Positions 1-16,442 of a stretch of DNA of 58,265 nucleotides are shown piece by piece. Origin of the DNA: an uncultured Lentisphaeria bacterium. GTDB lineage: Bacteria; Fidelibacterota; UBA8477. Below the pieces are notes generated by a model. It was given only the letters and a program-made list of their open reading frames with translations. It had not been told where the DNA came from and ran no database searches. Location: NCBI GenBank assembly GCA_964543125.1, contig CAZIWX010000001.1:1-58265 (forward strand), written 5' to 3'. Position numbers and translations under genes: made by a program. Within the stretch, counting starts at the first letter, position 1. Each line of letters starts with the position of its first letter.

Positions 1-333
1 TTCATAACACCCCCGGCCTTCGAGCCGTCTTAAGCCTTGAGAATATATATTTTAAGGAACACATTATGTTCAAATCGGGGTGATATATGATTTTTAGATA
101 AAACACCGGCTATTCTCCTTTATTACATAACTACCGGTAAGGTCGTTCCGTTCCACGGCGGTACTGCCATGCGGGCCGGCCTGCGCCCTGTTCCGGCAAG
201 CTAAAGCATATTTTCATCCTTTTGCCCACGTCGGCGCTTACCGCCGGTTCACCCGTATATTTAAATACTTTATCCATCTGTTCCGCTTATCCGTAGCGGC
301 GTAAGTTTACCCGCACTACTTCAGATTGTCAAT

Positions 334-1088: not shown

Positions 1089-1433
1089 CTAGTGAACTTC
1101 TTCTGTAAAATCATCCAGTACCATGAGTACATCCGGTAAAATCCGCAAGACCGTGGAGATGCCTACCGAAGGTACGCTGAGAATCATGGCATCCAGAATT
1201 TCGTCCCGGGTGGCGCCCGCCCGCAGGGCTTTGGGCACAATGACCTTGATGGTCTGAGGTGAAGGACTCGTCATTTGCAGCGCTAACATGATCAATTGTT
1301 TGGTTTTTTCATCCAGGTGCTCCCCCAGACTGCCCACCATTTTCATGTAGGACACCATTACTTCCTTGCGATGGGTTAACATGAAGGTCAGGCCATCCGG
1401 TTCCAGGTTTTTAAAATCATAATTTTCGCTCAT
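1089..1433 (-). CDS. Carboxymuconolactone decarboxylase / AhpD-like family protein (Cys-less variant)
   Basis: 114 aa. The pattern ...LDEKTKQLIMLAL...ALRAGATRDEILDAM... resembles the CMD-family helix core. The protein contains no Cys at all. Confidence 0.55.
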   Translation of the reverse strand: MSENYDFKNLEPDGLTFMLTHRKEVMVSYMKMVGSLGEHLDEKTKQLIMLALQMTSPSPQTIKVIVPKALRAGATRDEILDAMILSVPSVGISTVLRILPDVLMVLDDFTEEVH

Positions 1434-11717: not shown

Positions 11718-12245
11718 TTAAGAGATATCCAGATGGGCAGTCAATTTCACCGGATTTCGCAGGGTAAACACCACCGGACAGCGTGCCAGAGCCAGTTTTT
11801 CGGCTTCCTTGATTTTCTCTTCCGGTGCATCGCTTTCCACTTGGAGAATCACCCGAACCTCTTCCATGGTTGGCGCACTACCCACACCAAACACCCGCGA
11901 GAAATTCACATCGGCTTCCACCCGAGTGGTGAGTTTTTTTAATTTAATACCCAGCATGGCAGCCATGGTAGCAAATGTCCCGGTATAGCAGGAAGCCAGT
12001 CCGTAAAAGCAGTAATGCATGGGCCCCGGTTGTTTACCGCCACCGCCCATAAAGGTGGGATTATCCACTTTAAAGATTGTCTCACCGCCTTCGTAAGTGA
12101 TTTTAGACTGGAATTGCATATCGCCTTCTTCCAAAACCCACTCTCCCTGGATGACCTGCGTCTTACGGGCCGCCGATGGATCGGCTTTAATTTTTCCCTC
12201 AAACTCCTGAACCTTTTGTGTGTCAACATTGTTGAATCGTGCCAT
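11718..12245 (-). CDS. OsmC/Ohr-family (thiol peroxidase-like) protein
   Basis: 175 aa with an OsmC-like layout. Two Cys lie in ...PMHYCFYGLASCYTG... and there is a C-terminal ...LALARCPV... block. Confidence 0.7.
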   Translation of the reverse strand: MARFNNVDTQKVQEFEGKIKADPSAARKTQVIQGEWVLEEGDMQFQSKITYEGGETIFKVDNPTFMGGGGKQPGPMHYCFYGLASCYTGTFATMAAMLGIKLKKLTTRVEADVNFSRVFGVGSAPTMEEVRVILQVESDAPEEKIKEAEKLALARCPVVFTLRNPVKLTAHLDIS

Positions 12246-13315: not shown

Positions 13316-13906
13316 TTACACCCATCCGAACCGCATCAGCGTTTTATTGGCCCGCCAGGCGAATAGCGCCGCTAAAACAATCAAGCCAATGGTCAACAAT
13401 GGGGAAAATGTCCCGTAAACTTGCACACCTAAAATGATGGTGGTAATGACGATGAATAAACAGAAGGTAGCTAACCGCTTGCGCAGAACCCGGAACGGTT
13501 TTAACCGGACCGCGAAACTTTCCGGAACAGGTCCATCCGGTGTTACCTCCGCCATCCGCTTCTCAATGGCCGGCTGCAGGCTGAGATGAACATAAGAAAG
13601 CAGTCCCATCAAAACAAACAGCAAGATGGTCTTCAACAAAATCACCCAGTTTTCCCACAGCGCCTGAATACCCAGCGGACCAAAAACTAACAGCAGAAGG
13701 CCGGTAGCCAGCACGCTGGTCTGGAACACGTAGCAGCGCGCAGCGCCGCGGCGGATGATGTTCTCCATGTAACGGTCCGTTGCATAAACGAAACCGCCGC
13801 CCATCATCGTCCGCTCGTTTACCACAATTAAATTGAAAAGTGGAATGGACATGAACACAAAACTTATAATATGGAGAAACTTTAAAACATCATAAAAATT
13901 GTCCAT
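13316..13906 (-). CDS. Polytopic membrane protein, unknown function
   Basis: 196 aa with about 5 hydrophobic helices. Its ATG lies 12 nt after the TAA of the extended DsrE gene, and AGGAG sits directly behind that stop. Confidence 0.5.
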   Translation of the reverse strand: MDNFYDVLKFLHIISFVFMSIPLFNLIVVNERTMMGGGFVYATDRYMENIIRRGAARCYVFQTSVLATGLLLLVFGPLGIQALWENWVILLKTILLFVLMGLLSYVHLSLQPAIEKRMAEVTPDGPVPESFAVRLKPFRVLRKRLATFCLFIVITTIILGVQVYGTFSPLLTIGLIVLAALFAWRANKTLMRFGWV

Positions 13907-13918
13907 TGTAACTCTCCT

Positions 13919-14266
13919 TTAAAAGACTAAGGATTTTTCACTATCCTTTACCCAATTGGATAATGTATCCATACTACTTTTAACCACACCCTCTACCATA
14001 AGCGCCTGTGATACCCCACGGGCATCGCTGCAGGAGCCTCATGCGTGGACATTCGCTCCCCTTCTCAAAAGGCTTTTGATCATGCGGGCAATGTTATAAT
14101 AGCCACTGGGTGTTTTTTGATTTTCCTGGACGCAGGCCACGGCGTCGCCCAATAAAAAAACCTGCACTTTTTCCTCCGTTTTAGACAGCGCAAGTGCCAG
14201 TCGCAGGCCGTTGTAGGATCGTTCGGTTCCATAAGGGCCATCGTTTAATATGATCGTGATTATCAT
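13919..14266 (-). CDS. YchN/DsrE-family sulfur-carrier-like protein, putative selenoprotein (Sec at codon 76, TGA 14039-14041)
   Basis: The track ORF stops at TGA. The same frame continues as GSCSDARGVSQALMVEGVVKSSMDTLSNWVKDSEKSLVF* to TAA 13919-13921. This gives a 115-aa protein of normal family length, with U-G-S-C in place of the C-x-x-C of Cys homologues. A SECIS-like hairpin follows the TGA. Confidence 0.75.
14005..14034 (-). promoter_or_regulatory. Candidate bacterial SECIS hairpin
   Basis: Numbering is mRNA +1 = U of UGA. Lower stem: +8..+11 CCUG pairs with +34..+37 CAGG. Upper stem: +16..+21 GAUGCC pairs with +27..+32 GGUAUC, with one G-U pair. The apical loop carries G at +23 and U at +24. 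Confidence 0.55.
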
Positions 14267-14322: not shown

Positions 14323-14982
14323 TTATCCTTCAACCGGCAAGCCGGCCTCTTTCCATTCCAGAACACCGTCTGCAAATCGAACCACTTTATAACCAGAATT
14401 CCTTAACATTTTTGCCGCTTCTACCGACAACACGCAATAGGGACCGCGGCAATAGGCCACAATTTCCCGGTCTCGCGGAATTTCCTCCATTCGATCTTTT
14501 AGCTCCTCTAAAGGGAGGGACAACGATCCCCGAATATGCCCTTGCTGATATTCCACTCGCGGCCTTACATCAATTACCGTTATCTCGTGATTTCGGAGGC
14601 GGTTCCACAACTCTTCGCGGGTAATCGGTTCCATTTCATCGCGCTCATGGAAAAACAACTTTGTAACCTCCCGGATTTCTGCATTCCGGTTTTCCGCCAG
14701 GGATTGAAGATTCTTCCAGCAATGAAACACATCACCATCTGCCAGACGATAAAAGATACGCACCCCTTCTCGACGATTTTGGATTAGCCGGGCATTCTTC
14801 AAAATTTGCAGATGGCGGGAAGTATTTGCGATAGCCATGCCGACTTGCCCGGCCAGGGAATCCACATCCCGCTCTCCTTGCGCCAACACATCAATCATTT
14901 CCAAGCGCCTGGGGCTGGCGAAAGCGTAGGCCATTTTAGCAAATTCCTGAAAAACCGCATCTTTGAATTCTCTGCCTGTCAT
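14323..14982 (-). CDS. ArsR/SmtB-family HTH regulator fused to a rhodanese domain
   Basis: N-terminal ...PRRLEMIDVLAQGERDVDSLAGQVGMAIANTSRHLQILKNARL... is a wHTH. The C-terminal rhodanese has the active-site loop AYCRGPYC. Confidence 0.85.
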   Translation of the reverse strand: MTGREFKDAVFQEFAKMAYAFASPRRLEMIDVLAQGERDVDSLAGQVGMAIANTSRHLQILKNARLIQNRREGVRIFYRLADGDVFHCWKNLQSLAENRNAEIREVTKLFFHERDEMEPITREELWNRLRNHEITVIDVRPRVEYQQGHIRGSLSLPLEELKDRMEEIPRDREIVAYCRGPYCVLSVEAAKMLRNSGYKVVRFADGVLEWKEAGLPVEG

Positions 14983-15475: not shown

Positions 15476-16442
15476 ATGAAGACCTATTACCGGTATTTAC
15501 TCGTTAGTCTGATCCCACTGATACCGGTGTCGTTTGGCCGGGCGTAGGTTATGCCCAATGCTCATCTCTTGAACCTTGTCGATTCCGGATATCACCAATC
15601 TCCGGTACAGGCTTTCGAGCCGGCTCCATTTACCAGTGATCAATATATCGATTTATTCTGCGTGCTAAGCAGCAACTCCTGGCCGTCTAGTCCAGAGGCG
15701 GTGGGACAAATTGTTAATCAGTCCAATAGCATATTCAACCTGTCTCTGTTTGGAAACAGTGCGGCACGAGATATTGCTTTCGGAGATATCAATCACGATG
15801 GACTGATTGACCTGGCAACCGACAAATATACCTACCTGAACCAGGGTAACGGGTATGATCCTAACCAAGTTCACTCCCTTGTAAATGGTGGTTCTTATGT
15901 AAAAACCGTTAAATTCGGTGATTATAATGGAGATGGTTATTCAGATTTACTGGTGCTTGAATCAATGAATCACGTAAAACTGTGGAGAAGTGATCACGGC
16001 GTTTATCATACCGCTCCGGATTATTTTTCCCAAGAAGGGCTTGTCTTCTTCGATGTTTCCCGGGATCTGGAGGTAGCCGATCTACACGGATTGGGCGGAA
16101 AAAGCGTCCTTATTTCGATTGACGGCGGTTACTACCAGTCTGGAGAAGGCCTCTACCAATTCGATCCCGTAACGGTAGATGCAGTGCCCGAGCCTCCCAA
16201 ATACCTGGTAATCAATGGCGCTGTAGGTAGGCATCCCCGGGTCCGGCAACGTCCGCTTCGAGATTTACGATGTCCGGGGGCGGTTGGTTTATTCCACAAT
16301 GAAAACCTACGAAGCCGGAATGCATGAATTCCGCTGGAACGGAACGAACAATGCCGGGAACTTACTGCCCTCCGGGATATATATCTGTAGAGTTATTAGC
16401 GGTGATCAAATGCAACTTGCCCGGCTGCTGTACACTAAATGA
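15476..16442 (+). pseudogene. FG-GAP/VCBS-repeat T9SS-secreted protein, inactivated by an in-frame TAG and a +1 frameshift
   Basis: ATG 15476 has the RBS AAGGAAGGAG and encodes the signal peptide MKTYYRYLLVSLIPLIPVSFGRA. An in-frame TAG (15545-15547) follows, then the 258-aa FG-GAP ORF of the track. A tandem GTAG|GTAG (16223-16230) shifts the frame. The T9SS CTD (...NVRFEIYDVRGRLVY...GIYICRVISGDQMQLARLLYTK*) is read in the other frame, ending at 16442. Confidence 0.7.

Follow-up and report, generated by a model that had tools for sequence, protein, structure and literature searches.

The window analysed here, a stretch of 58,265 nt from an uncultured bacterium, harbors at positions 13919-14266 of the minus strand a gene that very probably encodes a 115-residue single-domain YchN-type DsrE protein in which the UGA at codon 76 is decoded as selenocysteine (Sec), as judged from the sequence and its comparison with related genes. 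The gene adds a well-supported selenoprotein for FCB-type uncultured lineages, and its relatives indicate that the DsrE-like selenoprotein family is spread far wider than the handful of published examples; the general understanding of selenoproteins remains unchanged by these results. The following features are referred to in the text:

14323..14982, minus strand: ArsR-type HTH fused to a rhodanese, directly upstream of the DsrE gene (Pfam HTH_5 and Rhodanese)
14042..14266, minus strand: N-terminal part of the YchN/DsrE-like gene, 75 codons (ORF list; matches positions 1-75 of the 116 in Pfam DsrE, E = 9e-16)
14039..14041, minus strand: in-frame TGA, probably read as selenocysteine U76, the first residue of U-G-S-C (alignments; same TGA in 65 genomes)
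14005..14034, minus strand: lower tier of the hairpin, +8..+11 with +34..+37 (in the MFE fold; 55.6% paired among 31 same-register relatives, a figure inflated by their selection for having the hairpin)
14010..14026, minus strand: putative SECIS upper stem-loop, +16..+22 with +26..+32 (folds; comparison of Sec- and Cys-forms)
13919..14038, minus strand: C-terminal 39 codons and true stop TAA 13921-13919 (translation; Pfam match of the tail alone)
13316..13906, minus strand: CopD-like membrane protein of 196 aa, downstream (AGGAG ribosome-binding site at 13914-13918, right after the DsrE stop)

Ordinary open reading frame (ORF) callers give only the N-terminal 75 codons of the gene (14042..14266), as the ORF at 14039..14266(-) starts with the ATG at 14266-14264 and stops at the TGA at 14041-14039. 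The initial annotation, which had been made from the window alone, had stated that the same frame remains open for 39 codons beyond this TGA, and the translation (GSCSDARGVSQALMVEGVVKSSMDTLSNWVKDSEKSLVF) did extend up to the TAA at 13921-13919, just ahead of which the tail ends in …SEKSLVF; the joined product is 115 aa long, as proposed. The described junction with the next gene was likewise found, since AGGAG (13918-13914) directly abuts the TAA and is followed 7 nt on by the ATG at 13906. The gene had been called invisible to ordinary ORF calling, and the entry in the protein collection itself is a 75-aa fragment (P0007). Truncation at residue 75 by gene callers thus deprives the annotation of the active-site residue along with a third of the protein. 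When the whole window was scanned for pairs of ORFs that a single TGA connects, this gene was the sole convincing case.

For family assignment, the product was searched with a cysteine put in at codon 76. It covered Pfam DsrE (PF02635) over positions 1-116 of 116 with E = 9.3e-28 and 97 bits (cut-off 22.7), in agreement with the family named at the outset. The 39-aa tail by itself matched positions 78-116 of this model (E = 3.6e-4), and the region after the TGA therefore represents the missing third of the domain. Among 1804 homologues in the protein collection, the best were 114-116 aa long with identities of up to 71%. Thus, homologues do not end at the column of the TGA, which is also apparent from the conserved 39-codon tail in 65 genomes with the same TGA. 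Instead, the TGA falls on the conserved first cysteine of a C-x-x-C motif, as seen in an alignment of 25 homologues (A-C-G-S/T-C-x-D-A-R-G), in YchN and in the DsrE/TusD profile, and the second cysteine of the motif, Cys79, was invariant among the 25 homologues. The sole solved structure found by sequence was that of E. coli YchN (PDB 1JX7), residues 4-117 of which aligned with residues 3-115 of the query (E = 1.2e-18 for the single sequence and 3e-30 with a profile). In this alignment YchN has L-C-K-T-C-T-D-G-R-G at the site of the TGA, and the motif given for YchN-type proteins in the initial annotation was therefore correct. The family profile also reached A. vinosum DsrE (2HY5) and E. coli TusD (2D1P), with the Sec column at their Cys78; these matches are weak (E-values of 0.0035 and 0.017), yet the alignments concur.

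Within the DsrE family, the product scored below the cut-offs of the NCBIfam equivalogs for TusD/DsrE and TusC/DsrF, TIGR03012 (30.7 bits; cut-off 89.25) and TIGR03010 (32.5 bits; cut-off 94.15). Due to these scores and the absence of partner-subunit genes nearby, filing of the protein as TusD, TusC or DsrE was rejected, and the sub-threshold TusC/TusD scores argue for a YchN-like protein rather than a subunit of TusBCD or DsrEFH. By sequence, it is a stand-alone YchN-type member of the family, sharing C-x-x-C-x-D-x-R-G with YchN. The alignment with E. coli YchN, a single-domain protein of about 117 aa with the motif at the same place, spans both proteins from end to end; however, the E. coli protein has a cysteine in place of Sec and one residue fewer in the G-Y-Y-N motif. 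With DsrE of A. vinosum DsrEFH and TusD of E. coli TusBCD it shares the fold family and the Sec column at Cys78, whereas no genes for DsrF/DsrH or TusC/TusB occur nearby, and DsrE and TusD are without the second cysteine of the C-x-x-C motif.

Conservation of the TGA was determined by scanning one genome per GTDB species for the pattern G-Y-Y-N, 17 codons, TGA, G-[ST]-C, 3 codons, R-G. By this DNA pattern, a single scan recovered 65 such genes in as many species-level genomes, at protein identities of 40-70%. The phyla with Sec-forms include Fidelibacterota/Marinimicrobia, Calditrichota, KSB1, Nitrospirota, Acidobacteriota and Gemmatimonadota; further Sec-forms were found in Bacillota (Thermincola among them), Actinomycetota and SAR324. 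Exactly 39 conserved codons follow the TGA in about 60 of the 65 genomes, with the family terminus …V/L-V/T-F. Codon-position entropies across the Sec-forms were alike in tail (1.08/0.81/1.65) and head (1.07/0.85/1.68), and stops in the tail amounted to 0.016 in frame versus 2.2-2.6 in the other two frames. Three Sec-form loci looked degenerate: in L026 the frame is closed by a stop 19 codons past the TGA, the tail of L027 is frameshifted and unrelated, and L053, the second of two copies in one MAG (the other being L042), is without the N-terminal ORF. In a rough neighbor-joining (NJ) tree based on about 100 aligned residues, Sec- and Cys-forms were intermixed, requiring at least 13 changes by parsimony, and some 13 or more switches between Sec and Cys thus appear to have occurred across the family.

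The initial annotation had further proposed a two-tier hairpin in the mRNA downstream of the UGA. In the minimum free energy (MFE) fold, the 57 nt starting at the UGA did form both tiers, pairing +8..11 with +34..37 and +16..22 with +26..32 around the loop G23-U24-G25 (positions 14019-14017), and the upper stem-loop, which is formed by Asp-Ala-Arg and Gly-Val-Ser codons, turned out to be conserved, but the lower tier did not. The numbering given for the E. coli fdhF SECIS was correct (upper stem-loop at nt 15-31, G23/U24; PMC8659212). As in fdhF, the upper stem-loop is located at the same distance from the UGA (nt 16-32 versus 15-31) with G23 and U24 in the apical loop; it differs, however, in having a 3-nt loop, no bulged U17 (E. 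coli criteria of PMC8659212) and a lower stem that is not conserved. Position 17 is an A that is paired with U31 in 28 of 31 relatives. In other clades of the family the register is shifted by 2 nt and the loops are GGN.

Taken by itself, the hairpin of the window displayed no extra stability compared to dinucleotide shuffles (z = -0.07 and -0.38), and resampling of synonymous codons gave a borderline result (z = -1.71, p = 0.05). As dinucleotide shuffles are uninformative in a G+C-rich coding stretch, they were dropped for a comparison of Sec- and Cys-forms and for synonymous resampling. Rfam yielded no match at gathering thresholds across the whole window, and locally only noise (E = 5-6). 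The significance of the hairpin lies in the comparison, that is, in 65 independent genomes with the TGA and in a hairpin that is specific to the Sec-forms.

As a control, 120 Cys-form loci were collected with the same pattern but TGY in place of TGA, 118 of which entered the stability and loop comparisons; Sec-forms were drawn from genomes and Cys-forms from metagenomes, so that their taxon composition is unlike. The MFE of the segment +10..+42 was -10.9 kcal/mol in the 65 Sec-forms and -7.3 kcal/mol in the 118 Cys-forms (Mann-Whitney p = 2e-14). Sec-forms folded more strongly despite a lower G+C content in this segment, and flanking controls were without excess. Synonymous resampling resulted in a mean z of -1.53 for Sec-forms (37% with p ≤ 0.05) versus -0.15 for Cys-forms (5%). 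An uninterrupted hairpin of 5 bp or more, with the loop starting at +22..+26, occurred in 58 of 65 Sec-forms (89%) versus 16 of 118 Cys-forms (14%). The loops of the Sec-forms were GUG, GGG, GGU, GGA or GGC, that is, 3-nt loops with G first at +23 or +25, whereas hairpin positions and loops were scattered in the Cys-forms.

The Sec-forms offer a clear case of a putative SECIS that is written into the codons of the conserved active-site peptide (D-A-R-G-V-S) and occurs in two registers. The register is clade-specific in the NJ tree, and the clade that holds the window comprises 25 sequences, all of register 1 and from FCB-type lineages. The upper stem was 91.5% paired in register 1 (loop at +23; 31 distinct sequences including the window) and 86% paired in register 2 (loop at +25; Bacillota and Acidobacteriota) versus 17-43% in slid controls, percentages that are inflated because both subsets were picked for having the hairpin. 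Free of this bias are the types of compensatory pairs and a set of D-A-R-G-V encoders that was picked without regard to structure. Pair 18-30 of register 1, formed between the wobble positions of the Asp and Val codons, occurs as UA, UG, CG, GC and AU, and RNAalifold independently gave the stem 18-22/26-30 for this register; in register 2, three pairs change between phyla (GC/UA/CG, UA/CG and CG/AU). Among the D-A-R-G-V encoders, all 7 pairs were present in 25 of 28 Sec-forms versus none of 5 Cys-forms, and the codons GCC for Ala and GGG for Gly were almost fixed in Sec-forms and mixed in Cys-forms. A series of decay was apparent as well, in which variants with CGA or GGA at the site keep 7 of 7 stem pairs, the closest Cys-form (TGT) 6 of 7 and the next (TGC) 4 of 7. 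The first two are near relatives from metagenomes, P0005 (CGA, Arg; L186:85-423) and P0006 (GGA, Gly; L187:255-599), the codon being one base away from TGA in each; they either lost Sec very recently by mutation or are Sec genes with an assembly or consensus variant.

Following the established bacterial pathway, a ribosome at the UGA would encounter, 11-14 nt further on, the mRNA hairpin (stem +16..22/+26..32, loop GUG), which would bind SelB·GTP·Sec-tRNA(Sec). Sec would then be inserted and translation would continue to the TAA at 13921-13919, directly before the ribosome-binding site of the next gene. By analogy to this pathway we infer SelB dependence and actual selenium incorporation. The gene might, however, be a relic in an organism that has lost the Sec machinery, so that translation halts at the TGA and yields a truncated 75-residue protein or nothing useful. 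Neither selA, selB nor selD was present among the window ORFs of at least 110 aa, the 58 kb contain no tRNA of any kind and therefore no tRNA-Sec, and the tRNAs that occur in the 65 Sec loci do not include a tRNA-Sec. Three ORFs of sel-like size at 53.6-58.1 kb (453, 333 and 642 aa) really were DUF711, a 2-hydroxyacid dehydrogenase and SecD. The lack of sel genes and tRNA-Sec in the window would suit a relic, as would the visible decay of some relatives (L026, L027 and L053); however, 58 kb out of a genome of several megabases would seldom include sel genes, and decay is not what the window displays: its tail is intact with exactly 39 codons and the normal C-terminus of the family, all 7 stem pairs are kept along with the Sec-form codons GCC and GGG, and its stop codon is coupled to the following gene through the ribosome-binding site. 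We therefore consider a relic very unlikely, and the intact gene and hairpin point to an organism that would be competent for Sec.

Even less probable is a read-through of the TGA without selenium, be it by an alternative code (TGA for Trp or Gly) or by insertion of Cys or another near-cognate residue. The position does seem to tolerate other residues in some contigs, such as Gly (GGA) in P0006 and Arg (CGA) in P0005, but in such a case there would be no role for a hairpin that is conserved, covaries and lies at the canonical distance for a SECIS. In addition, TGA ends about one quarter of the long ORFs of the window and is absent from the interior of ORFs of up to 1189 codons; a genome-wide recoding is thus ruled out, and an alternative genetic code was rejected on this stop-codon usage. 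A private nonsense mutation or a sequencing or assembly error (TGC/TGT to TGA) in a Cys-type YchN gene is effectively refuted: TGA is one base off either Cys codon and CGA and GGA variants do exist in metagenome contigs, but the recurrence of this TGA in 65 species-level genomes, whose proteins are 40-70% identical, and the conserved tail, which together with the standard use of stops also exclude TGA as a sense codon, do not fit a private event, and nor does a hairpin that comes with the TGA, is absent from Cys-forms and has been lost in part by the closest of them.

A family of DsrE-like selenoproteins was reportedly described by Kryukov and Gladyshev in 2004. Its existence, which had been mentioned in the initial annotation along with the remark that the family itself is not new, is documented in several publications from 2004-2005 onwards (PMC1088965, PMC1794560, PMC13188914). 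The Sargasso Sea survey (Zhang et al., 2005) lists a 'DsrE-like protein, Pfam02635, UXXC' with a predicted SECIS (PMC1088965), a DsrE-like selenoprotein was noted in D. vulgaris (PMC1794560), and reviews from 2022 and 2026 list the DsrE-like selenoprotein and call its function uncharacterized (PMC9312934, PMC13188914). As such a 'DsrE-like, UxxC' family has been published, the gene of the window is an additional member of a known family, with the same Pfam domain, the U-x-x-C motif with Sec for the first Cys, and a bacterial SECIS directly after the UGA with a G in the small apical loop. Published examples are few, namely two Sargasso reads (PMC1088965) and one Desulfovibrio genome (PMC1794560), whereas members were found here in 65 species-level genomes across many phyla, FCB-type lineages among them. 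In the scan of one genome per GTDB species, the pattern did not match any Desulfovibrio, and the published exemplar may therefore belong to another subclade. Modest additions to what has been published are the conserved upstream ArsR-rhodanese gene, the two SECIS registers and the CopD-like membrane partner.

Of the related loci, 63 (27 Sec-forms, 36 Cys-forms) have a homologue of the ArsR-rhodanese gene immediately upstream, minimum numbers given that many of the contigs are short, and so do the Cys-orthologue loci L188-L190. E. coli YchN is not known to have such a neighbour, and no description of an ArsR-rhodanese and YchN module was found in the literature searched. Downstream, the gene for the 196-aa membrane protein is probably co-transcribed with the DsrE gene. 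The protein had no Pfam or NCBIfam match; its 1620 homologues from FCB-type phyla, a few of which are tagged PF05425 CopD, share 70-87% identity, and it is therefore more conserved than the selenoprotein itself. A membrane protein of 175-196 aa followed the DsrE gene in 16 loci (13 Sec, including the window, and 3 Cys), and in the window a gene for a di-haem cytochrome c comes next. Other genes that recur downstream encode an SQR/FCSD-like flavoprotein (in 32 loci), an aminotransferase of class V and cysteine-desulfurase type (17) and a methyltransferase (15), and a SLAC1/TehA-type channel occurred after the DsrE gene in 6 Sec-form loci (e.g., L038:39-1016) versus 0 of 120 Cys-form loci. No second DsrE-family cluster was present in the neighbourhood census. 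The closest Cys-type orthologue, P0004, and its ArsR-rhodanese gene adjoin a mer operon (L188:296-5898, L190:400-3932) consisting of MerR, MerT-HMA, a CopZ-like protein, an HMA/TusA-like protein and MerB.

Cys78 of DsrE is cited in PMC6620896 as carrying the persulfide in DsrEFH. As Sec occupies the column of this Cys78 in DsrE/TusD, the protein would most likely be a carrier of sulfane sulfur (persulfide). The intermediate would be a selenenyl-sulfide or Se-S-S that is resolved by the invariant Cys79, and the module would be headed by a persulfide-responsive ArsR-rhodanese regulator. The ArsR-rhodanese is probably either the regulator or the sulfur donor of the module. By homology and gene neighbourhood, a sulfane-sulfur carrier with Sec76 and Cys79 appears to be the most economical reading. 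Rather than a plain sulfur relay, Sec-YchN/DsrE, the ArsR-rhodanese and the CopD-like protein might form an undescribed chalcogen/soft-metal module in which Sec binds the substrate directly; candidate substrates may be selenium/tellurium species or mercury. This is hinted at by the bias of the membrane partner (13 Sec versus 3 Cys loci) and the TehA/SLAC1 channel (6 versus 0) and by the mer operon neighbours, but we regard it as unlikely.

Apart from this locus, the window represents an ordinary chromosome with genes for ATP synthase, ParAB, SecDF, AspRS, PFOR and cargo proteins of the T9SS. When the genes at its ends were looked up, the only contigs identified were siblings (L194 and L195; SRR9849951, JGI 3300023444) that stop exactly at 1 and 58265, which may reflect a shared assembly break or clipping; the parent contig is listed as 83 kb. 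At 15551-16442(+), a 258-aa FG-GAP protein stops at the TGA 16327, and a 52-aa ORF in another frame (16284-16442) bears the FlgD_ig/T9SS C-terminal sorting domain, the usual end of FG-GAP proteins like this one. This split is probably a frameshift due to a pseudogene or an assembly error. Two further families, OsmC-like and CMD/AhpD-like proteins, have Sec-containing members elsewhere. In the window, the OsmC-like protein at 11718-12245(-), the best NCBIfam match of which was 'OsmC-related (seleno)protein' (76 bits; cut-off 95), and the CMD/AhpD-like protein at 1089-1433(-) are both encoded by intact ORFs, and they are therefore presumably Cys-forms.
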